A stretch of 64,000 bases of DNA from Acidimicrobiia bacterium (GCA_015488325.1 WFOA01000010.1:15945-79944), one strand, 5' to 3'. Shown: positions 41,041 through 55,836, counted from the first letter of the stretch. Made by a program: numbers and translations. Notes: generated by a model not told the origin, from the letters alone.

Positions 41041-41109
41041 GGCCCCCGAGACTAATGATTGCTCCGGAAACGGCCGATACTGGAGGGGATCCACGAGAGG
41101 GGAACGACC

Positions 41110-42201
41110 GTGAAGACCCGCCTGCGCATCCTGGCAGCCGTGTTCGCCCTGACCGCGGCAGCGTGCGGCGGTGGCACACCCGCCGCCACCGACCCGGCCG
41201 CCCCGGCCGACGACACCACCTCCCCACCTGCGTCGGGGCCCCAGATCGCGCCGGCGTCGTTCCAGTACCACTACGACGACGTCGTCGAATACGCGTTGAC
41301 CCTCGACCAGACCCTGACGATGCGCGCCGACGGCGACGCCTCGGGTTTCGGCGACGGCCGGTACGAGCTGCCCGTCGAGATGGAAGCCGATGTGCGGGCG
41401 GACCTGACGCTGCGCTACGAGACGAGTCCCGGTCCCGACCCGGGCACCACCACCGTCCGCCTCACCTCCGAGGTGACGAACCTGGTCGTCGAAGGGACGA
41501 TCAACGGCGAGCCGGCGGCCGACACCGACATGGCCCAGCTCGGGCCGACCACCCTGCCACCGGTGGACGTCACCGTCATCGTGGACGAACGGGGCAACGT
41601 GGTGGAGATCGAGAGCTCCGGCGAAGATCTCGGAGCCCTCTTCGGCGGGCTCGGGAGCCTCGAGAACCTCGGCACCTCCCGGCTCGGCCGCCCCGTCGGC
41701 CCGGCCTTCCCCGAAGAGCCGGTGGGGGTGGGCGACACCTGGACGGAGACCACCGAGACGGAAGGCCCCGAAGGGCCCATCGTCACCCGGGCCACCCACA
41801 CCGTCGTCGGCACCGACGTCGTCGCCGGGCGGGACGTGCTCGTCGTCGAGAGCGTCTACGAGACCGACGGGTTCTCGTTCGACTTCACCGACTTCCTCCG
41901 AGGGTTCCTCGAAGGCTTCAGCGACGCCGCCGGCGAGGCCGGGGCACCCGACGAGGGGGAGCTCCAAGACATGCTCGAACAGCTCGTGTTCCGCATCGAC
42001 GTGGCGCCGACGACCAGCACCGTGACCTCCTGGTTCGATCCCGAACGGGGCCTCGTCGTCGAGGCCGACGGCAACGACGACACCGGAATGGCGATGCAGT
42101 TCCAGGGCCCCAACGAGGAGACGGGGGCGATGGAACGCCTCGACGTGGACATGTCGATCACCCAGTCGGTCTCCTACCGCCTCCTCGGCCCGGGCGCCTG
42201 A
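41110..42201 (+). CDS. Putative secreted lipoprotein, function unknown
   Basis: GTG start with GAGAGGGGA upstream. Signal peptide VKTRLRILAAVFALTAAACGGG (lipobox-like LTAAAC), then an acidic, Thr/Gly-rich domain of about 340 aa. Confidence 0.6.
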   Translation: MKTRLRILAAVFALTAAACGGGTPAATDPAAPADDTTSPPASGPQIAPASFQYHYDDVVEYALTLDQTLTMRADGDASGFGDGRYELPVEMEADVRADLTLRYETSPGPDPGTTTVRLTSEVTNLVVEGTINGEPAADTDMAQLGPTTLPPVDVTVIVDERGNVVEIESSGEDLGALFGGLGSLENLGTSRLGRPVGPAFPEEPVGVGDTWTETTETEGPEGPIVTRATHTVVGTDVVAGRDVLVVESVYETDGFSFDFTDFLRGFLEGFSDAAGEAGAPDEGELQDMLEQLVFRIDVAPTTSTVTSWFDPERGLVVEADGNDDTGMAMQFQGPNEETGAMERLDVDMSITQSVSYRLLGPGA

Positions 42202-42275: not shown

Positions 42276-43037
42276 GTGCGCACCGAGACCCCCCTCCTCC
42301 AGATCGAGAACCTCCACGCCGGGGTCGATGACGTCGAGATCCTCAAGGGCGTCGATCTCACGGTCGAACGCGGCCGCATCCACGTGCTGATGGGTCCCAA
42401 CGGCTCCGGCAAGTCCACCCTCGCCAACGTCCTCATGGGTCACCCCTCCTACGAGGTGACCGAAGGTCGCATCCTCTTCGACGGCGACGACGTCACCGAG
42501 ATGGCCCCGGACGAACGGGCACGGCGCGGCATGTTCCTCGCCTTCCAATACCCCGAAGCCATCCCCGGGGTCTCGGTGATCCAGTTCCTGCGCCAAGCCC
42601 TCTCCAACCGCCACGGCATCGACTACACGGTGCTGGAGCTGCGGCTCAAGGTGATGGACGCGATGAGAGAGCTGGGGATGGACTCCAGCTTCGCCGACCG
42701 CTACCTCAACGAGGGATTCAGCGGCGGTGAGCGGAAACGCAACGAGGTCCTGCAGATGGCGATCCTCGAGCCGACCCTCGCCATCTTGGACGAGACCGAC
42801 TCCGGTCTCGACATCGACGCCCTCAAGACCGTCGCCGAGGGGATCGACAAGCTCCGCCACCCGGACCGTGGTTTCCTCATCATCACCCACTACCAGCGGC
42901 TGTTGGACTACGTCACCCCCGACGACGTCCACGTCTTCATGGACGGCCGGGTCGTCGAGACCGGCGGCCCCGAGCTGGCGAAGCGACTCGAAGAGGAAGG
43001 GTACGAGGCCTTCCGCCGAACCGAGGTCCCCTCATGA
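42276..43037 (+). CDS. sufC: Fe-S cluster assembly ATPase SufC (copy 1)
   Basis: [10 protein letters not shown] Walker A, FLAFQYP, LNEGFSGGERKRNEVLQM signature, [17 protein letters not shown] start. Confidence 0.9.
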   Translation: MRTETPLLQIENLHAGVDDVEILKGVDLTVERGRIHVLMGPNGSGKSTLANVLMGHPSYEVTEGRILFDGDDVTEMAPDERARRGMFLAFQYPEAIPGVSVIQFLRQALSNRHGIDYTVLELRLKVMDAMRELGMDSSFADRYLNEGFSGGERKRNEVLQMAILEPTLAILDETDSGLDIDALKTVAEGIDKLRHPDRGFLIITHYQRLLDYVTPDDVHVFMDGRVVETGGPELAKRLEEEGYEAFRRTEVPS

Positions 43038-44263
43038 GCGGTCTCGAGCACCTCCGGGCAGATTTCCCGGTGCTCCAACGGGAGATCGGGGGCAAGCCGG
43101 TGCATTTCCTCGACTCCGCCGCCAGCTCCCAGAAGCCGACGAGCGTCCTGGAAGCGATGGACGACTTCTACCGGTGCTGTTACGCCAACGTCCACCGGGG
43201 GGCGTACGCCCTGTCGGTGGAGTCGACCGAACGGTACGAGGCGGCCCGGAGCAGGGTCGCCTCGTTCATCAACGCCTCCGATCCGACCCAGGTGGCCTTC
43301 GCCCGAGGTGCCACCAGTGCGCTGAACCTCATCGCCCACGGCTGGGGTGGCGAACACCTCCGCCCCGGTGATCGGGTGCTGCTCACCGAGATGGAACACC
43401 ACGCCAACCTGGTGCCTTGGCAGATGGTCGCCGCCCGTACGGGAGCCCGCCTCGATTTCGTCCCCCTCACCGACGACTACCGGCTCGACCTGGAGGCGTT
43501 GGAGCAGAAGCTGGACGACGACGTGGCCGTCGTCGGCGTGACCGGGATGTCGAACGTCCTCGGCACCATCCCCCCGATCCCCCGGATCGCCGAGGCGGCC
43601 CGGACCGTCGGTGCTCTCCTGGTCGTGGACGGAGCCCAGCTCGTACCCCACCAACCCGTCGACGTCCAGACCCTCGGAGCCGACTTCCTCGTCTTCTCGG
43701 CCCACAAGATGCTGGGTCCGACCGGCATCGGGGCCCTGTGGGGTCGCCCCGAACGTCTCGAGGAGATGGAACCCTACGAAGGGGGCGGGGAGATGATCGC
43801 CGACGTCCAGCTCCACACCTCGACCTGGGCGGCGATCCCCCACCGTTTCGAGGCGGGGACACCGCCGATCGCCGAAGCCGTTGGTTTCGCCGCCGCGGTC
43901 GACTACCTCGACAAGGTGGGGATGGACCAGGTCGCCGCCCACGACGCCGACCTCACCGCCTACGCCCTCCAGCTCCTCGCCGAGATCCCCCACGTCACCG
44001 TGTACGGACCCGCCGACGTCGACGCCCGGGGAGGGGTGATCTCCTTCACGATGGCGGACGTCCACCCCCACGACCTGGCCACGATCCTCGACCAGCAGGG
44101 CGTGTCGGTGCGGGCGGGACATCACTGTGCCAAGCCCCTGATGCGCCGTCTCTGCGTGCCCGCCACCGCCCGGGCCTCCTTCTACGTGTACAACACCCGG
44201 ACCGACGTGGACGCCCTGGTCGAGGCCCTGGGGGTCGCATCTCGGATCTTCGGGGTCGGGTGA
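43034..44263 (+). CDS. sufS: Cysteine desulfurase SufS
   Basis: Class II aminotransferase V: PLP lysine region SAHKMLGPTGIGAL and catalytic Cys loop RAGHHCAKPLM; ATGA overlap with sufC. Confidence 0.9.
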   Translation: MSGLEHLRADFPVLQREIGGKPVHFLDSAASSQKPTSVLEAMDDFYRCCYANVHRGAYALSVESTERYEAARSRVASFINASDPTQVAFARGATSALNLIAHGWGGEHLRPGDRVLLTEMEHHANLVPWQMVAARTGARLDFVPLTDDYRLDLEALEQKLDDDVAVVGVTGMSNVLGTIPPIPRIAEAARTVGALLVVDGAQLVPHQPVDVQTLGADFLVFSAHKMLGPTGIGALWGRPERLEEMEPYEGGGEMIADVQLHTSTWAAIPHRFEAGTPPIAEAVGFAAAVDYLDKVGMDQVAAHDADLTAYALQLLAEIPHVTVYGPADVDARGGVISFTMADVHPHDLATILDQQGVSVRAGHHCAKPLMRRLCVPATARASFYVYNTRTDVDALVEALGVASRIFGVG

Positions 44264-44274
44264 GGGAGGCGGAG

Positions 44275-44730
44275 ATGTCACTCGAAGAGCTGTATCGAGA
44301 GGTCATCCTCGACCACTACCGCAACCCGCGTCATCGCAAACCCCTCGACCGGGCCGACGCCCACGCCGAAGGCGTCAACCCGCTGTGCGGCGACGAGGTG
44401 ACGGTCGAACTCGCCGTCACCGACGGGAGGATCAGCGACGTCGCCGCCATCGGCCAGGGATGTTCGATCAGCCAGTCCTCGGCTTCGATGATGACCGACG
44501 CGATCCTCGGCAAGACCGTCGAAGAGGTGCGGGACCTCATCCAACGGTTCAAGGCCATGATGGACATCGACCACGAAGCCGACCTGGGTCTCGACCCGGA
44601 TCGTCCGGGGGCGGTGTTGGGGGACCTGGAAGCCCTCCAGGGCGTGCGCCGCTACCCGGTCCGGATCAAGTGCGCCAACCTCCCCTGGACCACCCTCGCC
44701 CAGGCTCTCGACCAGCTCTCCGCCTCTTAG
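44275..44730 (+). CDS. sufU: SUF-system NifU/IscU-like scaffold SufU
   Basis: MSLEELYREVILDHYRNPRHRKPL...NPLCGDEVTV...GQGCSISQSSASMM. GAGGGAGG upstream of the ATG. Confidence 0.85.
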   Translation: MSLEELYREVILDHYRNPRHRKPLDRADAHAEGVNPLCGDEVTVELAVTDGRISDVAAIGQGCSISQSSASMMTDAILGKTVEEVRDLIQRFKAMMDIDHEADLGLDPDRPGAVLGDLEALQGVRRYPVRIKCANLPWTTLAQALDQLSAS

Positions 44731-44816
44731 GCTCTTCTTGACCTCCTGCTGATGCGCCCCTGAGTCGCATCCCGGCACGATGTCCACAGAACCGAGGGAT
44801 CAGTAGGAGGTCTCAC

Positions 44817-45692
44817 ATGGAACGAAAGATCTGGACCACGGCGGCGGCGCTCACCGTCGTTCTCGCCGTGACCGGCGTCGCCTGGGCAGGGCTGCCCCGC
44901 GCCGCCGAGACGAGCACCACCGTGACCGTGGAGAACGAGCTGGTGGCCCCGGCAGCCGACGCCGGCACCGTCACCCTCCGGAAAGTCGCCGCCGGCCTCG
45001 AGGTCGTGTCGGTGAGCCCGGCCGACGGCTGGGAGTACACCGTGAAACGTGCCGCCGGCCGGGAGGTCGAAGTCGACTTCCGAGCGATGGACGGGACGGT
45101 CGAGTTCGAGGCCGAGATCGACAACGGCCAGGTTCGCATCAAGGTGAAGGTCCGCGTGGACGCCGGTGCCTCCTCCACGACGACCGTCGATTCCACGTCC
45201 TCGACGGTGGACAGCACCTCCACCTCGGTGGCCGCCGGCCCCTCCACCACCGAGGCGGTGACGTCGACCACCATCGACGACAGCCCGTCCACCACGGTCG
45301 ACGATACGTCGCCGACCACCATCGACGACGACCGCACCACCTCGACCACGGTGTACGACGACGACGATGACGACGACCACACCACCTCGACCACGGTGTA
45401 CGACGACGATGACGACGACCGCACCACCTCGACCACGGTGGCGCAGGGCGATCCGGCCGACTTCGGCACCAAGGTCTACGACGTCGACGGCATCGGCACC
45501 GTCACCGTGGAACGGGACGCCGACGGCCTGACCCTCATCGCCGTCGTCTCCAACCCCGACTGGACGATCAACGTCGAGAAGGCCGGTCCGAAAGAGATCG
45601 AGATCGAGTTCAGGAACGGAGAGCTCGAGGTCAAGTTCGAAGCCGAGCTCGAGTACGGGGAGCTCCGGATCAAGATCGAGCGGGGTTCCTGA
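44817..45692 (+). CDS. Secreted protein with two PepSY-like beta domains separated by a Ser/Thr/Asp-rich low-complexity linker
   Basis: GGAGG 7 nt upstream. Signal peptide MERKIWTTAAALTVVLAVTGVAWA. N-terminal and C-terminal domains of about 80 aa each share the pattern ...VEVDFRAMDGTVEFEAEIDNGQVRIKVKV / ...EIEIEFRNGELEVKFEAELEYGELRIKIE. The PepSY assignment is by pattern only. Confidence 0.6.
   Translation: MERKIWTTAAALTVVLAVTGVAWAGLPRAAETSTTVTVENELVAPAADAGTVTLRKVAAGLEVVSVSPADGWEYTVKRAAGREVEVDFRAMDGTVEFEAEIDNGQVRIKVKVRVDAGASSTTTVDSTSSTVDSTSTSVAAGPSTTEAVTSTTIDDSPSTTVDDTSPTTIDDDRTTSTTVYDDDDDDDHTTSTTVYDDDDDDRTTSTTVAQGDPADFGTKVYDVDGIGTVTVERDADGLTLIAVVSNPDWTINVEKAGPKEIEIEFRNGELEVKFEAELEYGELRIKIERGS
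45334..45441 (+). repeat. Intragenic tandem repeat (about 42-45 bp unit, about 2.4 copies) encoding RTTSTTVYDDDDDDD-type peptide
   Basis: accacctcgaccacggtgtacgacgacgacgatgacgacgacc repeated nearly exactly. Confidence 0.7.
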
Positions 45693-45696
45693 CCGG

Positions 45697-46974
45697 TCAA
45701 TCCTTCCCGAACACCACCCGGAGAACCGCCCCGCCCTCGGGGCGGTTCTCCGCGTCGAGGTGGCCGCCCGTCCGCGCGGCGGTACGGGCCACGATGTCGA
45801 GTCCGAGACCCGTCGACCCGGCCCCGCTCTCCCCCCGGCGCAGGGGATCGACCCCGTCGGGGAACCCGGGTCCCTCATCGGCGACTTCCAGGACGGCACC
45901 ACCGGCGCCTCTATCGACCTTCACCGTGAACCCGGTCCCCGGAGGGGTGTGGGCGAAGACGTTGCCGACGAGGGCGTCGACGGCGGCTGCGACGTCGCCC
46001 GGAGGGAGCGGCACCGGCGTGGGATCGTCGGTGATCTTCACCTCCAGGGCGCGGTCCTGGTCTTCGGCGGCGACCGCCCAGAAGGCGATCCGGTCTCGGA
46101 CCACCGTCCCCAGATCGCAGGAGGCGGGCCGGTCGTCGGGCCTGGACCGGGCCTCTTCGATGAGCAGGTCGACTTGGCGCTGGAGGCGATCGAGCTGGGC
46201 GAGGAGGGACTCCCGCTCGGGGGATGCTTCGAGCCGCTCGACGCGCAAGCGGAGGGCGGTGAGGGGGGTGCGAAGTCGATGGGAGAGGTCGGCGACCGAT
46301 TCCCGCTCGGCGGCGAGGAGGTCGTCCAACCGCCGTGCGAGCCAGTTGAACGACCGGGCGACCTCCTCGATCTCGACCGGACCTTCCAGGGGAACCCGAA
46401 CCTGCAGATCGCCGGCTCCGAGACGGCGGGCGGCCGTCGCCAGGCGAGTGACGGGACGAACGAGGGACGTTCCCAGTCGGTCGGCCACCAGGACGGCAGC
46501 GACGATCATCCCCAACCCGAGCAGCGCCAAGAACACCCAGGCGGTGGCCACACCCGACCGCAACTGGTCGTCGGTGACGAAGGCCGTGACCACGATCGGG
46601 CCTTCCCGGGTCACCACCGGGAGCGCCACCTGCCAGCCCCCGTCGACCTCGTCGGCCACCGCACGTTGCTCATCGGCGGCGAGGCGGGTCACCGCGCTGG
46701 GCAGGGCGGACCCGATCAACCCTCCGTCGGGGAGGATGACGCTCACTCCGGGAGGTAGGGGCCCGAGGAGGTCGGCGAGGACGTCGACGTCGAGGCGGTC
46801 CACCTGGGCGAGGGCGAGGGCGACGAGGCTCCCCACCTCCTGAATGTCCCGTTCAGCGGCGACCCGGGCTCGGGTCTCCGCCTGGTGGCGGACCAACAGG
46901 GCCAGGGGCACGGTGAAGGCGATGACGACCAGGGACGTCACGGCGGCGGAGACGAGGACGAATCGGCGTCTCAC
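45697..46974 (-). CDS. Two-component sensor histidine kinase (HAMP-HisKA-HATPase)
   Basis: Two TM segments, HAMP, H-box ESVADLSHRLRTPLTAL and G-boxes GTGLGLDIV. GTG start overlaps the response-regulator stop (GTGA). Confidence 0.85.
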   Translation of the reverse strand: MRRRFVLVSAAVTSLVVIAFTVPLALLVRHQAETRARVAAERDIQEVGSLVALALAQVDRLDVDVLADLLGPLPPGVSVILPDGGLIGSALPSAVTRLAADEQRAVADEVDGGWQVALPVVTREGPIVVTAFVTDDQLRSGVATAWVFLALLGLGMIVAAVLVADRLGTSLVRPVTRLATAARRLGAGDLQVRVPLEGPVEIEEVARSFNWLARRLDDLLAAERESVADLSHRLRTPLTALRLRVERLEASPERESLLAQLDRLQRQVDLLIEEARSRPDDRPASCDLGTVVRDRIAFWAVAAEDQDRALEVKITDDPTPVPLPPGDVAAAVDALVGNVFAHTPPGTGFTVKVDRGAGGAVLEVADEGPGFPDGVDPLRRGESGAGSTGLGLDIVARTAARTGGHLDAENRPEGGAVLRVVFGKD

Positions 46975-47654
46975 GATTCGGGTTCGACCAGCTTCACCCC
47001 CACACCGTGAACGGTCCGCAGGTAGCGGGGCTGCTGCGCAGACTCGCCCAGTTTCTTGCGAAGCCACGACAGGTGCACGTCGACGGACCGCTCACTGCCG
47101 CCGTACGGCTCCCGCCAGACTTCGGCCATCAGCTCCCGCTTCGACACCACTTCGCCTGCACGTTCCGCCAGCACCCGCAACAGGTCGAACTCCTTGGGAC
47201 TGAGGTCCAGGGGTTCACCGTCGAGGGAGGCTTCCCGGGAGGACGGGTCCACCACCAGGCCGCCGATGACGATGGGTCCGTCCCGCCGACCCGACTCGGC
47301 CCGGCGAAGCACCGCCCGCACCCTCGCCTCGAGCTGGGCCACCGAGAAGGGCTTCACGAGGTAGTCGTCGGCGCCGGCGTCGAGGGTACGGACCACCGAC
47401 TCGTCCCCTTCCCGGGCGGTGATGACCACGACGGGCACCTGCGACACCGCTCGGATCATCCGGAGCAGCTCCGAGCCGTCGAGGTCGGGCAGGCCCAGGT
47501 CGAGGATCACCAGATCGGGCGACGATCCGACGACCTGGCGGAGACCCTCCATGGCGGTGGCCGCCGATTCGACGTCGTGACCCTGGCGGGCCAGCGTCTC
47601 GGCGACCAGGTGCCTGATCTCGAAGTCGTCCTCGACGACGATCACACGGGACAT
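46971..47654 (-). CDS. OmpR-family response regulator
   Basis: Receiver domain MSRVIVVEDD...DLVILDLGLPDLDG plus winged-helix output (trans_reg_C) ...VDVHLSWLRKKL. Confidence 0.85.
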   Translation of the reverse strand: MSRVIVVEDDFEIRHLVAETLARQGHDVESAATAMEGLRQVVGSSPDLVILDLGLPDLDGSELLRMIRAVSQVPVVVITAREGDESVVRTLDAGADDYLVKPFSVAQLEARVRAVLRRAESGRRDGPIVIGGLVVDPSSREASLDGEPLDLSPKEFDLLRVLAERAGEVVSKRELMAEVWREPYGGSERSVDVHLSWLRKKLGESAQQPRYLRTVHGVGVKLVEPES

Positions 47655-47694
47655 CGGCCCCGAGCATATCGGCCGTGCCACCCCGGAGATCGGA

Positions 47695-47723
47695 CCTTGA
47701 CGAAACCTTGACTACCCCTTGAC
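47695..47723. promoter_or_regulatory. Three direct repeats CCTTGAC spaced 11 bp apart in the intergenic region between the response regulator and the PepSY-like gene
   Basis: ccttgacgaaa-ccttgactacc-ccttgacttcc. Helical-turn periodicity is typical of OmpR/PhoB-family binding sites. The last TTGACT could also serve as a -35 element. Confidence 0.5.
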
Positions 47724-47757
47724 TTCCGAGTGCGCGGATCTCGGGGAGAATGACGGT

Positions 47758-48405
47758 ATGCGCCGGCTCGTACTCGTCGTCGCCTGGATGGGCGCCACCG
47801 TGATCGTCACCGCCACCGCCTGGGCGGTGGTCTCCGCGGTGGAGGACCGGGTCAGCGACCGGCCCCTCACCCCCCTCATCGCCACCACCTTGGCGGTCGA
47901 CGAGACCACGACCACCACCTTGCCTCCGGTGACGGACCCGTCGGCCGAGACCCCGCCGCCGGCGACCGGCGACGAACCGACCACGACCACGGTCGGAGCC
48001 GAGACCGACGACACGGTGGCCTCGACGGGAAACACCGGAGGGGGCACCGTCCCCACCACCGCCGCCCCGACCACCACCACGACCTTGGTGACCACCACGA
48101 CGACCGTCCCGACCACCACCACGACCGTCGCGACCACCACGACCACCTCGACGGAGCCCTCCGGCGAGTGGCAGACGAAGACGATCGTGACGCCGGGAGG
48201 CAGCCTCACCATCAAGCACCGCCCCGACGAAGTCGTCTTGACGTCGACGACTCCGGCCGCCGGCTTCGTGGTCGAGATCAAAAACGCCGGTCCACCCGAA
48301 GTGGATGTCGAGTTCGAGACGAACGACGACACCGTCAAGATCGACGTGCGGGTCCGCTACGAGAACGGCGTCCTCATCGAAGACATCGAAGAGGAGCGAA
48401 GCTGA
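47758..48405 (+). CDS. Membrane-anchored/secreted protein with Thr/Pro-rich linker and C-terminal PepSY-like domain (paralog of the 44817..45692 domains)
   Basis: MRRLVLVVAWMGATVIVTATAWAVVSAV anchor, poly-Thr linker, then a domain GEWQTKTIVTPGGSLTIKHRPDEVVLTSTTPAAGFVVEIKNAGPPEVDVEFETNDDTVKIDVRVRYENGVL matching the pattern of the other protein. Confidence 0.6.
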   Translation: MRRLVLVVAWMGATVIVTATAWAVVSAVEDRVSDRPLTPLIATTLAVDETTTTTLPPVTDPSAETPPPATGDEPTTTTVGAETDDTVASTGNTGGGTVPTTAAPTTTTTLVTTTTTVPTTTTTVATTTTTSTEPSGEWQTKTIVTPGGSLTIKHRPDEVVLTSTTPAAGFVVEIKNAGPPEVDVEFETNDDTVKIDVRVRYENGVLIEDIEEERS

Positions 48406-48408
48406 ACC

Positions 48409-49800
48409 TCAGAGGATGCCACCCTCGGTCATCTTCTTGATGTCGAGGGCGGCGTCGACCTCTTCGGCGCTCATCAGCCCCTTCTCGAGGACCACCTCCC
48501 GCACGGTCCGCCCGCTGGCGAATGCCTCTTTCGCCACGGCGGCTCCGGCGTCGTAGCCGATGTGGGGGTTGAGGGCCGTTACCACGATGACGTTTTTCTC
48601 GACGAGTTCACGGGCCCGTTCTTCGTTCGCCTCGATCCCGGTGACACACTTCTCGGCCAGCACCCGCGACGCGTTGCCGAGGATCGTGATCGCCTGCAAC
48701 AGGTTGTGGGCGATCAACGGCATCATCACGTTGAGCTCGAAGTTGCCGTTGGCTCCCCCCCAGGTGATGGCGGCGTCGTTGCCCATCACCTGCGCCGCCA
48801 CCATCATCACCGCCTCGGGGATGACCGGGTTCACCTTGGCGGGCATGATCGACGAGCCGGGTTGGAGTGCCGGAAGCCGGATCTCGCCGATCCCGGTGAC
48901 CGGACCGCTCGACAGCCAGCGGAGGTCGTTGGCGATCTTGAACAGTGACGTGGCGACGGTCTTGAGGGTGCCGGCCGCCTGCACCGTGGCGTCCTTCGCC
49001 GCCTGCGCCTCGAAGTGGTTCGTGGCTTCCCGGAACGGGATCCCGGTCCGCTCGGAGATGACGTCGATCACCTTCGCGGCGAAGCCTTCCGGACAGTTGA
49101 TCCCGGTCCCTACGGCGGTTCCCCCGAGGGGGAGCTCCTCGAGTTCGGGGAGGACCTTCTCGACCCGTTCGATCCCCTTGCGGACCTGGGTGGCGTAGCC
49201 GGAGAACTCCTGGCCGAGGGTGACCGGCGTGGCGTCCATGAGGTGGGTCCGTCCCGACTTCACGACCCGTTCGAACTCCCGGGACTTCTCCTCCAAGGCG
49301 AGGGCCAGCGCCGACAGTCCCGGGATCAGCACTTCCCGCACCTCGGCGGCGGCGGCGACGTGGATCGCCGTGGGGATCACGTCGTTCGACGACTGACCGA
49401 AGTTGACGTGGTCGTTGGGATGTACGAGTTTGGACCCCAGGGCTCCACCCAGGACCTGCGAAGCGCGGTTGGCGATCACCTCGTTGGCGTTGGTGTTCGT
49501 CGACGTCCCCGATCCGGTCTGGAAGATGTCGACCGGGAAGTGCTCGTCGAAGTCGCCCCTCGCCACTTCGGCGGCGGCCTGCTCGATCGCCTTCGCCTTC
49601 TCGGCGTCGACGTACCCTTCGGGTCCTGCGACGGCGGCCACCGCCCCTTTGATGACGCCGAGGGCCCAGATGAACCGACGGGGGAAACGGATCCCCGAGA
49701 TCGGGAAGTTCTCGATCGCCCGTTGCGTCGAAGCTCCGTAGAGGGCGTCGGCCGGGACCCGGACCTCGCCCATCGAGTCTCTCTCGGTGCGGTACTCCAC
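48409..49800 (-). CDS. fumC: Class II fumarate hydratase
   Basis: [11 protein letters not shown] signature, [40 protein letters not shown]. These align better with FumC than with aspartase. GTG start with GAAGGAG 7 nt upstream. Confidence 0.9.
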
Positions 49801-49873: not shown

Positions 49874-50674
49874 TCAGAAGTCGAAGGGAGTGTCGGTGAA
49901 GAAGTCCGACGGCCGGCGTTCCGACGGGGTGGGTTCGGGCTGGAGACCGAGACGCTCCCGCAGGCCTTCGTATCCTTCTGCCTCCAGCTCGTCGGCCAGC
50001 TCGGGTCCTCCCGAACACACGATCCTGCCGTCCATCATCACGTGGATCCGGTCGGCCCGCAGGTAGCGGAGGATGCGGGAGTAGTGGGTGATGAGCAGCA
50101 CCCCGAGGTCGGGGCCTCGCATCTCCTCCACGGCGGCCGCCACCTCCCGGACGGCGTCGATGTCGAGTCCGGAGTCGATCTCGTCGAGCAGCGCCGCCTT
50201 CGGACGGAGTACGGCCATCTGGAGGATCTCGGAACGCTTCTTCTCCCCGCCGGAGAGGTCGTCGTTGACCGACCGGTCCAAGAATTCGGTGGCGCCGAGG
50301 CGTTCGGCGAGCTCCCGGGCCCGGGTCAGTGTCGCCTCCGGGTCGGCTCCCCACTCTTCCGCCGCCTCTCGGAGCAGCTCGGACAGTTTCACCCCGGGGA
50401 TCTCCACGGGATACTGGAAGGCCTGCAGGAGCCCCAACCGGGCCCGCTCGTCCACCTCGAGGCCCAACACCTCCGTCCCGTCGAGGAGGGCGGATCCCGA
50501 GACCTCGTAGCCGTCTTTTCCGGTGAGCACATGACAGAGGGTCGACTTGCCCGAACCGTTCGGGCCCATCACGGCGTGGACCTCGCCGAAACCGATGTCG
50601 AGGTCCACGCCACGCAGGATCTCGACGGAACCAACCGAGGCGTGGAGGTCGCGGATCTGGAGGGCGAGGCTCAT
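49874..50674 (-). CDS. sufC: Fe-S cluster assembly ATPase SufC (copy 2) with about 25-aa C-terminal tail
   Basis: [15 protein letters not shown]...[10 protein letters not shown]...LQAFQYP...[17 protein letters not shown] at 50674 overlaps the Rieske gene stop (ATGA). The upstream extension is Arg-rich junk. Confidence 0.9.
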
Positions 50675-50985
50675 GACGGCTCCACGGACAGGTAGACGTC
50701 GCCGTCTTCCACCTTCACCCGGTAGGTGGGCACCGGCCGGGTCGCCGGAAGGGTGAGGGGTTTGCCCGTCTTGAGGTCGAAGACGGCGCCATGGCGGGGA
50801 CATTCGATCTCGTGGTCCACGACCTCTCCTTCGGCGAGGGACGCCTCGGCGTGACTGCATCGATCACCGAGGGCGTAGACGTCGTCTCCGACCCGGACGA
50901 GGGCGATCCGGTGCCCGGGAAGGTCGACCCGCACCGGGGCGCCCGGGACCAGATCGTCCATCGACGTCACCTTCACCCAGCTCAT
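50671..50985 (-). CDS. Rieske [2Fe-2S] domain protein (suf-operon associated ferredoxin-like)
   Basis: CxH...CxxH boxes DRCSHAEASL and ECPRHGAVF; 104 aa; sits between sufD and sufC, as in actinobacterial suf operons. Confidence 0.85.
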   Translation of the reverse strand: MSWVKVTSMDDLVPGAPVRVDLPGHRIALVRVGDDVYALGDRCSHAEASLAEGEVVDHEIECPRHGAVFDLKTGKPLTLPATRPVPTYRVKVEDGDVYLSVEPS

Positions 50986-52247
50986 CCCAACCTCCCTGCG
51001 GCCTGAGCGGCACCGAACCGTTCGTCCACTTCCCGCCGGAGCGGATCGGCCATGGCGTCCGACGGGAGGCGTTCGATGACCTCTTCGAAGAACCCGTGCA
51101 CCAGGAGGCGTTCGGCCCGGTCACGGGAGAGACCCCGGCTCATCAGGTAGTACAGATGTTCGGCGTCGAGGGGCCCGACGCTGGAGCCGTGCCCGCAGAC
51201 CACGTCGTCACAGAGGATCTCGAGGTTGGGGACCGAATGGGCCTTCGCCCCGTCGGAGAGGACCAGGTTGCGGTTGGTCTCGAACGCCGATGTGCGGGCG
51301 GCGGTGGGAGCGATCCGCAACAGACCGGTGAACACCGACTGGGCGTGATCTTCCACCGCGCCTTTGAGGAGGACGTCGGAGCTGGTGGAGCGGCCCACGT
51401 GGTCGATCACCATCCGGTAGTCGAGGACCTGGGTGCCTTCACCGAAGTACAACCCGACGACCTCGGCGGAGCTACCGTCGCCTTCGAGGCGCACCCCGAG
51501 GTCGAGCCGGGCCGTCGACCCCCCGAGGCCCGCCTCCCCGACCCGCAGGGTGGCGTCCCGGGCGAGTCGAGCCCGCTCGTGGGCGACGAGGACGGTGGCG
51601 TCGCCGAGGAGCTGGACGGTGGTGAACCGCAGCCGGGCCCCCTGGGCGACGTCGAGTCCGAGCAGCGGAGCGACGACGGCGTCGACGCCGTCGGGGCTGC
51701 GGTAGACGACCACCACGTTCGCCTCGGCGTTCTCACCGACCTCCACCGTCACTTCCGGGAACGAGATCGTGCCGCCGGCGGTGGCTTGGAGTTCGACCAC
51801 CACCGGACGGACCTCGACCGCACCGGCCGGGACGCCGACGAACACCCCGTCGCCGCCGAAGGCGAACCCGGCGGCGGCGAACTTGTCCACCGAGGGGTCG
51901 ACGAGGGATGGGACCGCTCCCCGCTCCCACCGTTCCGCCCCCCGGCCGATTCGCACGGTGTCCCCACCGTCCACCGACACCGTGTACCCGTCCACGACCA
52001 CGACCCGGCCGGCAGCGTCGCCGATCGCCGACACGAAGGGGCCGGGCTTCAGCGGTTGTCCGGGTTCTTCGGGGAGGGCGAGGGTGTCGAAGTCGACGTC
52101 GAGGTCGACGTATCTCCAGGCCTCGTCGGTGTCGGACGGAGGGGGGATCTCGCGGTAGAGGTCGAAGGCTTCGAGTCGCCGCCGAGCGAGGGGCTCGGGG
52201 GCGTCGCGATTCAGGACCTCGACGGTCGTGGCGTTCAGGGCGAGCAC
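50982..52247 (-). CDS. sufD: Fe-S cluster assembly protein SufD
   Basis: SufBD-family beta-helix C-terminal region (...NLEILCDDVVCGHGSSVGPLDAEHLYYLMSRGL...). GTG start; ATGA overlap with the Rieske gene. Confidence 0.85.
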   Translation of the reverse strand: MLALNATTVEVLNRDAPEPLARRRLEAFDLYREIPPPSDTDEAWRYVDLDVDFDTLALPEEPGQPLKPGPFVSAIGDAAGRVVVVDGYTVSVDGGDTVRIGRGAERWERGAVPSLVDPSVDKFAAAGFAFGGDGVFVGVPAGAVEVRPVVVELQATAGGTISFPEVTVEVGENAEANVVVVYRSPDGVDAVVAPLLGLDVAQGARLRFTTVQLLGDATVLVAHERARLARDATLRVGEAGLGGSTARLDLGVRLEGDGSSAEVVGLYFGEGTQVLDYRMVIDHVGRSTSSDVLLKGAVEDHAQSVFTGLLRIAPTAARTSAFETNRNLVLSDGAKAHSVPNLEILCDDVVCGHGSSVGPLDAEHLYYLMSRGLSRDRAERLLVHGFFEEVIERLPSDAMADPLRREVDERFGAAQAAGRLG

Positions 52248-55563: not shown

Positions 55564-55836
55564 ATGGAAGCCATCAGCAGCGAAATCGTCGACGCGTTCA
55601 TCCGGATCGCCGTCGCCGGCGGCATCGGAGGCCTCTTCGGAGGGTTCATCGGAGGTCGGGGGAAGAACCTGATCGGCTCGATCCTGTTGGGAATCATCGG
55701 CGGGATCTCGGCTTCGGCGATCCTCCGGATCGCCGGGGTGCCCGCCATCATGAACGCCGGCGAAGGATTCGGACTGGTCTACGGCTTCGTCGGTGGTTTC
55801 ATCCTGGCGTTCGTCGTGGGAGCCTCCAATCGCTGA
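55564..55836 (+). CDS. GlsB/YeaQ/YmgE-family small membrane protein (transglycosylase-associated family)
   Basis: 90 aa, Gly-zipper rich (AGGIGGLFGGFIGGRGKNLIGSILLGIIGGI). Confidence 0.55.
   Translation: MEAISSEIVDAFIRIAVAGGIGGLFGGFIGGRGKNLIGSILLGIIGGISASAILRIAGVPAIMNAGEGFGLVYGFVGGFILAFVVGASNR

Follow-up and report, generated by a model that had tools for sequence, protein, structure and literature searches.

A predicted autoregulated two-component system with two exported beta-domain proteins, recurrent in Acidimicrobiia

PhoP of Mycobacterium tuberculosis binds 7-bp repeats separated by a 4-bp spacer (PMC4832192), and PhoP of Streptomyces coelicolor binds 11-nt repeat units (PMC2275107). 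In the autoregulated HbpS-SenS-SenR system of Streptomyces, a secreted accessory protein, HbpS, is encoded beside an actinobacterial kinase-regulator pair and feeds back on the SenS kinase (PMC4991794). An envelope protein is also genetically linked to the kinase in CseA-CseB-CseC, LpqB-MtrA-MtrB, and YycH/YycI-WalRK. Here, these systems are compared with a four-gene module of a member of the Acidimicrobiia, a class that is abundant in soils and waters, mostly uncultured, and with almost no characterised regulation. The module lies within a 64-kb stretch of DNA (64,000 nt, 70% G+C; GCA_015488325.1 WFOA01000010.1:15945-79944), which was analysed as a whole and is hereinafter called the window, with positions counted from its first letter. 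It comprises genes for the exported acidic protein P1 (44817-45692, + strand, 291 aa), a sensor histidine kinase (HK; 45697-46974, - strand, 425 aa), an OmpR/PhoB-family response regulator (RR; 46971-47654, - strand, 227 aa), and the exported or membrane-anchored protein P2 (47758-48405, + strand, 215 aa). We estimate at about 70% the probability that these genes constitute an autoregulated two-component system, whose local regulon consists of its own operon and the two exported acidic beta-domain proteins, serving as outputs or feedback partners.

The RR combines a receiver domain (Pfam Response_reg, PF00072, 96.8 bits with a cutoff of 30.2) and, in its C-terminal half, a winged-helix DNA-binding domain (Trans_reg_C, PF00486, 88.7 bits with a cutoff of 26.2); inspection of the translation showed that the receiver residues E8-D9-D10, the phospho-acceptor D52, and the lysine of YLVKPF are all present. 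Its closest solved relatives are KdpE, PrrA, PhoP of M. tuberculosis, RegX3, and MtrA (full-length matches, E 1e-38 to 1e-43). The HK, an EnvZ-like transmembrane kinase of the HisKA type, consists of a first transmembrane segment, an extracytoplasmic loop of about 120 aa, a second transmembrane segment, and HAMP, HisKA (H-box SHRLRTPL), and HATPase_c domains (53, 33.8, and 46 bits, respectively, each over its Pfam gathering score). Its hydrophobic segments, delimited by inspection at aa ~5-27 and ~145-170, are conserved in 46 orthologues, and its GTG start codon overlaps the stop codon of the RR gene (GTGA), which couples the start of the HK to the end of the RR. Against the NCBIfam equivalogs CseB, MtrA, and PhoB the RR scored 181.5, 180.2, and 178.8 bits, under the respective cutoffs of 350, 300, and 296.2. 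Since no NCBIfam equivalog cutoff was reached by the HK either, the pair counts, on its profile scores, as uncharacterised, although its kind is very well known. The gene coordinates of the initial annotation proved correct, as did its description of a two-component system flanked by two exported paralogues, given the Pfam domains of the RR and HK and the domain shared by P1 and P2.

The RR has the receiver and winged-helix architecture also seen in the PhoP-PhoR systems of M. tuberculosis and S. coelicolor. PhoP operators are likewise 7-bp direct repeats with 4-bp spacers (11-nt units), often with three or more units in phase, adjoining or replacing the -35 element, so that the OmpR/PhoB-type operator geometry proposed in the initial annotation has precedent in the family (PMC4832192, PMC2275107). 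However, the similarity to this RR is at the family level (179 bits with the NCBIfam PhoB model, cutoff 296), and while PhoP-PhoR serves phosphate genes, the local regulon here would include two exported beta-domain proteins. The units differ as well, being of the GTTCACC or TCACAGC type for PhoP and CCTTGAC here.

A genome scan with the P2 profile found 70 loci, nearly all of them in metagenome-assembled genomes of Acidimicrobiia, with a few in Nocardioides and Propionibacteriales. Clustering of open reading frames (ORFs) from related loci showed the HK and RR in 65, P2-like genes in 61 of these 65, and P1-like genes in at least 45, whereas the next commonest neighbour, a cNMP-binding protein, occurred in just 22. 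The order P1-like(+)/HK(-)/RR(-)/P2-like(+) was kept in the great majority of related loci (tblastn); P2-like genes are transcribed divergently from the RR in 61 of 65 loci, and P1-like ones converge with the HK in at least 40-45 of about 60-65. Judging by this gene content, the module recurs in about 60 genomes, nearly all of Acidimicrobiia. It is thus widespread in the class, and it is undescribed in the literature searched; searches on CCTTGAC with response regulators and on the amphi-Trp domain returned nothing relevant to this system. A wider conserved neighbourhood was considered and rejected, as suf, fumarase, cNMP-binding protein, GNAT acetyltransferase, ECF sigma factor, and GATase genes each occur in no more than one third of the loci; judged by this distribution, the suf and fumarase genes flanking it in the window do not belong to the module.

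Like HbpS, P1 and P2 are exported accessory proteins encoded beside a kinase-regulator pair and conserved together with it (P2-like in 61 of 65 loci, P1-like in 45 of 65). The HbpS system, however, has one accessory gene, whereas there are two here, and P1 and P2 have no detectable match to a curated sequence family. CseB and MtrA are the best NCBIfam models for this RR, yet their scores (about 180 bits) lie far under the cutoffs of 350 and 300. Furthermore, the accessory proteins CseA, LpqB, and YycH/YycI are unrelated in sequence to P1 and P2, and the gene order is unlike that of the Cse, Mtr, and Wal systems, since the accessory genes here form separate transcription units on the opposite strand, each with its own array of repeats.

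Direct-repeat arrays and promoters of the module

The 103-bp region between the divergent RR and P2 genes contains three direct repeats of CCTTGAC on the + strand (47695-47701, 47706-47712, and 47717-47723), a predicted operator of the adjacent RR. The initial annotation had pointed to these repeats and to their exact 11-bp spacing, and the arrangement turned out to be non-random. The word itself is at chance frequency in the window (7 occurrences found, 6.7 expected), but CCTTGAC is the only 7-mer in the 64 kb that is repeated three times at 11-bp spacing, and none of 200 dinucleotide-preserving shuffles of the window gave such a triple. Another 7-mer triple, with 12-bp spacing (at 55625), was rejected as ordinary Gly-rich coding sequence. 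The array spans approximately -63 to -35 relative to the start of P2 and -41 to -69 relative to the start of the RR, which was taken as the ATG at 47654 in accordance with the alignment of orthologues. Alternative starts within the intergenic region, GTG at 47681 for the RR and TTG at 47719 for P2, were rejected, because the orthologues align from 47654 and 47758, respectively, and a conserved -10-like hexamer stands directly upstream of each of these positions.

A set of 48 RR/P2 intergenic regions, picked solely by RR identity (at least 64%) and with the motif ignored, was aligned. Conserved blocks, i.e., two -10-like hexamers and the three units, stood out amid unconserved sequence, and the position and phase of the array were kept in most of the regions. 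The family consensus of the three units is cCTTGAg-gaaA-CCTTGAy-N4-CgTTGAs, beginning about 38 nt upstream of the RR start. The simplified pattern TTGA-N7-TTGA-N7-TTGA is restricted to one position: over both strands of 641 kb of sequence from related loci, it was seen in 38 loci, each time on the + strand at 40-47 nt upstream of the RR start, and nowhere else. Among 42 distinct arrays anchored on the motif, the TTGA cores vary hardly or not at all (40-42 of 42). A matrix of the RR/P2 array trained on other genomes had its unique top match in the window at 47695 (44 bits), and no further operator sites were found in the 64 kb, either at up to three mismatches or by matrix scan. The control of the RR operon and of the flanking P2 gene by the RR, as suggested in the initial annotation, is therefore strongly backed by comparative evidence, namely by an array conserved in position and phase.

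Each of the two divergent genes has its own -10-like hexamer. For the RR-HK operon it is TATGCT (47663-47668, - strand), located 8 nt before the RR ATG in the window; in most loci the consensus is TAACCT (TANNNT type, seen on the + strand as the block cAGGtTAtc) and stands 6 nt before the RR start. For P2 it is GAGAAT (47746-47751, + strand), exactly 6 nt before the ATG at 47758. The corresponding conserved block, cCtGgGA(g/c)AATg, follows unit 3 at a distance of 21-22 nt and precedes the start codon by 6 nt in nearly all aligned loci. As a hexamer 6 nt from the start codon would place the start of transcription at the first base of that codon, the P2 mRNA is probably leaderless and that of RR-HK leaderless or nearly so. 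Leaderless mRNAs are common in Actinobacteria. A sigma-70 consensus scan of 44600-48600 found no classical -35/-10 pair.

A second array, of four in-phase predicted regulator-box units, precedes P1 on the + strand (44725-44764): TCTTAGG (44725-31), which overlaps the stop codon of the upstream sufU-like gene, TCTTGAC (44736-42), TGCTGAT (44747-53), and CCCTGAG (44758-64). In 29 other upstream regions of P1-like genes the consensus is cCTTGAg-N4-TCTTGAk-N4-cGCTGAt-N4-tcATGAc, and in about 27 loci CTTGA-N6-CTTGA lies within a conserved promoter block about 85 nt upstream of the P1-like gene. A 58-nt matrix trained solely on other loci had a single top match in the window, at 44725 on the + strand, with 37.9 bits compared to -5.5 for the next one. 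The conserved block GAcacTgGg follows unit 3 by 22 nt in the 29 P1-like loci. The -10-like hexamer of P1 in the window is CACGAT (44776-44781, + strand; family consensus GACACT). P1-like genes of the family have a strong AAGGAGG ribosome-binding site before the start codon, and the P1 mRNA, with its start placed by the hexamer, would have a leader of about 29 nt with a strong AGGAGG ribosome-binding site. Neither the P1 array nor the probably leaderless promoters were included in the initial annotation. In several genomes there are two tandem P1-like genes, each with its own regulator-box array.

The orthologues of the RR at related loci are 53-77% identical to it. In diverged lineages (about 53-57% identical), in which the wing of the DNA-binding domain reads T[KR]RGVG and not TVHGVG, the units are GCTTAGC or CTTA(A/T)C and the 11-bp phase is kept, which looks like co-evolution of the regulator and its operator. 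The arrays of diverged regulators were located about 57-60 nt upstream of the RR start in L052, L065, and L066, and further diverged loci are L046 and L048. A different arrangement was noted in two Nocardioides loci (L049 ~2030-2070 and L068 ~2175-2215), where a palindromic site upstream of the P1-like position consists of two inverted units (TCAAG…TCAAG) followed by two direct ones (CTTGAG-N4-nCTTGAC), unlike the purely direct arrays of Acidimicrobiia.

Predicted wiring and alternative explanations

From the observed gene and domain content, the paralogy of P1 and P2, and the repeats with their conservation and positions, we infer a wiring that includes RR binding, activation, leaderless transcription starts, and, more speculatively, an interaction with the kinase. 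The membrane HK, with its small extracytoplasmic loop, would phosphorylate the RR, which, by analogy with other members of its family, would then bind the 7-bp units CCTTGA[C/G], recurring every 11 bp, as head-to-tail protomers. Binding is predicted at two places, i.e., at the three-unit array between the divergent RR-HK and P2 promoters and at the four-unit array upstream of P1. The units are oriented alike at the P1 and P2 promoters, with one unit at about -41 to -35 from the presumed transcription start. Because this unit adjoins the -35 position in promoters with no recognisable -35 element, the RR most likely activates P1 and P2. The three-unit array, reversed relative to the RR promoter, would autoregulate the RR-HK operon. 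P1, secreted and with a disordered Asp/Ser/Thr-rich linker, and P2, anchored or secreted and with a Thr/Pro-rich stalk, would be the local output of the system at the cell envelope.

As P1 and P2 are always found together with the kinase, they might also feed back on its sensor loop, and in the strongest form of this idea they would be primarily co-sensors or feedback modulators in a four-component system, and not mere outputs. The linkage of P2 to the kinase operon (61 of 65 loci) and of P1 (at least 45 of 65) fits such a role, as do the strongly conserved N-terminal hydrophobic and juxtamembrane motif of P2, the presence of a relative with four domains next to a further RR-HK pair, arranged differently, and the precedent of a secreted accessory protein encoded beside a kinase (PMC4991794). 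Nevertheless, members of the domain family are also found away from any two-component system, genes for plain outputs would be expected to be under RR control just as well, and the proposed contact with the kinase is drawn by analogy; we therefore treat a primarily sensory role as a tentative possibility. More doubtful is its extension, in which P1 and P2 would represent a new class of extracytoplasmic co-sensors, with the amphipathic seven-strand beta domain docking on the kinase loop or pairing with another copy and the acidic linkers (in some genomes DDNSGHG) capturing a cation, e.g., a divalent metal, so that the whole would act as a four-component cation/envelope sensor of Acidimicrobiia. 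That the acidity and the Asp- and His-rich repeats hint at cations is speculation.

Returning to the autoregulated system with P1 and P2 in its local regulon, several observations weigh against it. In the window itself, the RR hexamer is spaced from the ATG by 8 nt instead of 6 nt, the T of the conserved cCtGg block is missing from the P2 promoter, and the P1 array is degenerate (unit 1 TCTTAGG, unit 3 TGCTGAT, and unit 4 CCCTGAG). The RR wing and the unit co-vary in just one or two lineages, and phylogeny confounds this pattern. Beta-domain proteins do not always occur beside a two-component system (e.g., P0018), and the function of the domain need not be tied to signalling. Finally, TTGAC, the core of the sigma-70 -35 consensus, is itself contained in the units.

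This shared core, together with the location of the repeats upstream of -10-like hexamers, would allow the arrays to be viewed as stacked -35 elements or sigma-factor sites instead of RR operators. We consider it very unlikely, as the conserved -10-like hexamer is separated from the nearest TTGAC by 21-22 nt, a distance outside the range of 16-19 nt, and the consensus scan found no promoter. Moreover, the flanking CC and the A-rich first spacer are conserved too, the three or four units hold a strict 11-bp phase, and the diverged RR lineages keep this phase but switch to GCTTAGC, which is unexpected of a housekeeping -35 element.

Only a slim chance is likewise given to the arrays being operators of a regulator encoded elsewhere, e.g., a global regulator of the OmpR family. 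These are predicted operators, and many OmpR/PhoB-family regulators use direct repeats phased at 11 bp. Yet the arrays accompany the RR-HK pair over about 40-50 genomes in which the flanking genes change, no array was found elsewhere in the 64-kb window or in about 640 kb of related loci, and the sequence of the units shifts with the wing of the adjacent RR.

If the autoregulated system is as predicted, the locus offers a complete and falsifiable wiring diagram drawn from sequence, in which a kinase-regulator pair is assigned a predicted operator (CCTTGA[C/G] every 11 bp), three promoters as targets, of which two are probably leaderless, and two exported proteins as target products. It also exposes a sizeable domain family outside the coverage of Pfam and NCBIfam, whose proteins are often truncated by gene callers at low-complexity linkers. 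In practice, annotation of the class could improve, hosts of high GC content could be given an inducible promoter with its regulator, and structural and ligand-binding studies would gain a defined target. What is new is the domain family, next to a clean and testable diagram; no existing concept is overturned.

The exported proteins P1 and P2

P1 begins with a Sec-type signal peptide (aa 1-24, …VAWA/G), followed by beta-meander domain 1 (aa ~31-114), a disordered Ser/Thr/Asp-rich linker (aa ~115-203), and domain 2 (aa ~204-290). P2 has an N-terminal hydrophobic segment, a Thr/Pro-rich linker (stalk), and a single C-terminal beta-meander domain (aa ~141-212). Export signals of P1- and P2-like proteins were assigned by inspection, and the hydrophobic segment of P2, with its family motif (A/T)W(Q/A)(I/V)VSA(A/V)(D/E)xxVSDRP conserved in both the hydrophobic and the juxtamembrane part, may act either as a signal anchor or as a signal peptide that is cleaved off. 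The two domain copies of P1 (about 70 residues each) share 39% identity (E ~5e-12), and the third copy, in P2, is more distant (24% identity, E ~3e-5 in window-sized searches); one family profile covers all three. The mature proteins are strongly acidic (pI ~4.05; for P1, 4.05) and contain no cysteine, and their linkers are 43-46% Ser+Thr.

AlphaFold2, run on an alignment of 61 domain sequences, gave seven consecutive beta-strands and no helix, with a predicted confidence score (pLDDT) of 97.7, and in a model of full-length P1 both domains exceeded pLDDT 90, whereas much of the linker stayed below 50. On these models, the domain is an up-and-down, all-beta fold of seven strands and represents a strongly acidic, previously uncurated family. 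Neither P1 nor P2 had a Pfam match of any kind even at E ≤ 1, and a scan of 58 family members against Pfam and NCBIfam yielded no consistent family; weak matches were scattered among these relatives, with DUF1775/YcnI seen in 3 of 58 and amphi-Trp in a single one, besides Glyco_hydro_49N, MliC, and other families, and we regarded them as noise. Among PDB sequences, a profile search hit just de novo designed beta proteins and, weakly, YcnI (E 0.14), and the domain has no close solved relative. The likeness to the uncharacterised Listeria monocytogenes protein Lmo2686 (PDB 4k15; 7% identity, Foldseek E 0.21, TM-score 0.46) suggests a related up-and-down beta topology, not homology. The amphi-Trp domain (TIGR04354) resembles the domain of P1 and P2 in size (about 67 aa). 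In that domain, as in P1 and P2, charged and hydrophobic residues alternate around a conserved Trp. It matches aa 53-101 of P1 weakly (E 6.5e-4, 20 bits, under the 31-bit cutoff) and one of the 58 family members at E ≤ 0.01, so that any relationship would be remote at best.

The initial annotation had assigned P1 and P2 as PepSY-domain proteins, i.e., as modulators of extracytoplasmic sensing or protease activity, which we find scarcely credible: a loose resemblance (small exported domains of beta character beside a two-component system) is all that favours it, no tool result backs it, and PepSY identity is ruled out at the level of sequence profiles, with no match of either protein to PF03413 even at E ≤ 1 and none among 58 members of the wider family at E ≤ 0.01. 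The PepSY fold is an alpha/beta one, with a helix packed on a small beta-sheet, and the predicted fold with its seven strands and no helix does not contain it. The lack of profile similarity is the outcome that the initial annotation had itself named as refuting PepSY, and deductions from PepSY biology (e.g., protease modulation) therefore have no basis here.

The family is large: its profile, run against 1.84 billion representatives of clusters defined at 50% identity, matched 1,992 clusters at E ≤ 1e-3, of which 440 also passed E ≤ 1e-10, and in many the domain is present in 2-4 tandem copies. Cluster look-ups gave no name beyond "hypothetical protein". A word-indexed protein search had returned only 7 matches, because P1- and P2-type proteins are fragmented by gene callers, and it was the exhaustive profile search that found the approximately 2,000 clusters. 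In public gene calls P1 is broken up into a 99-aa C-terminal piece and a spurious 169-aa antisense ORF (L001 9319-9828 (-) and 10001-10300 (+)), and P2-like proteins appear as pieces of 64-78 aa with an antisense ORF across the low-complexity linker (L002 3276-3638 (-) and 3643-3879 (+); proteins P0001-P0007).

The low-complexity repeats reported for both flanking genes in the initial annotation are real tandem DNA repeats according to Tandem Repeats Finder. In the P1 linker (45324-45440, + strand) the period is 42 bp, with 2.7 copies and 93% matches, and the unit encodes (R/H)TTSTTVYDDDDDD(D). In the P2 linker (48053-48147, + strand) the period is 21 (21/42-bp), with 4.5 copies, and a Thr-rich tract is encoded. 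The linkers had also been described as hypervariable-looking, and their length and sequence indeed vary between orthologues, that of P2 differing widely in both among 20 orthologues whose domains align; programmed hypervariability is not supported. The P1 repeat was compared with that of a near-identical metagenome scaffold (L001, ENA REYS20-1; 99.5-99.7% identical to the window, with identical gene order and a concordant HK gene call). L001 has one extra GAC codon relative to the window at the P1 repeat, and it also has a 100-N scaffold gap inside the repeat, so that the one-codon difference stands beside an assembly gap. On these comparisons, the linkers of P1 and P2 are fairly described as fast-evolving and low-complexity.

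Between the window and L001, there are 6 nucleotide differences in the HK gene and 2 in the RR gene, with no amino-acid change in either, and none in the RR/P2 intergenic region. In P2, 6 nucleotide differences result in 4 amino-acid changes (L45V, N92D, A103V, and R214Q; L001 12366-13013), which may suggest relaxed or diversifying selection on P2, although the numbers are small.

Variation among related loci and the gene neighbourhood

The P1-like proteins of related loci share the signal peptide M-F/A-RKMxGVFTAVAAALLLVGVAWAS, followed by a Ser/Thr/Asp-rich region and by 0-3 beta domains, while in the P2-like ones the N-terminal motif TWQIVSAADxxVSDRP and the C-terminal domain are linked through a variable Thr/Pro/Ser stalk. 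Some P1-like genes encode no beta domain and end in Asp/His-rich repeats (DDNSGHG, GDDNGGHGGDD), e.g., L002 815-1315, L007 1449-1916 and 2040-2660, and likewise in L012, L014, and L034; the family member P0018 combines beta domains with a repeat tail. At the locus L074 (380-4146), a four-domain family member (P0009, 513 aa) is encoded directly 3' of a further RR-HK pair and shares its strand; a CTTGA array is not seen at this locus.

In the window, suf iron-sulfur assembly genes surround the module in two groups facing in opposite directions (42276-44730, + strand, and 49874-52247, - strand). Immediately 5' of the first sufC-like gene there is a 380-aa ORF (41059-42201, + strand) whose N-terminus resembles that of a lipoprotein (…LTAAACGGG) and which matched nothing in Pfam at E ≤ 1e-3. 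The + strand group has the order sufC-sufS-sufU-like, whereas the - strand group is composed of a second sufC-like ABC ATPase gene, a Rieske protein gene, and a SufD-like gene; hence, there are two sufC-like copies in the window. A class II fumarase gene (48409-49800, - strand) is located, together with the module, between the two suf groups.

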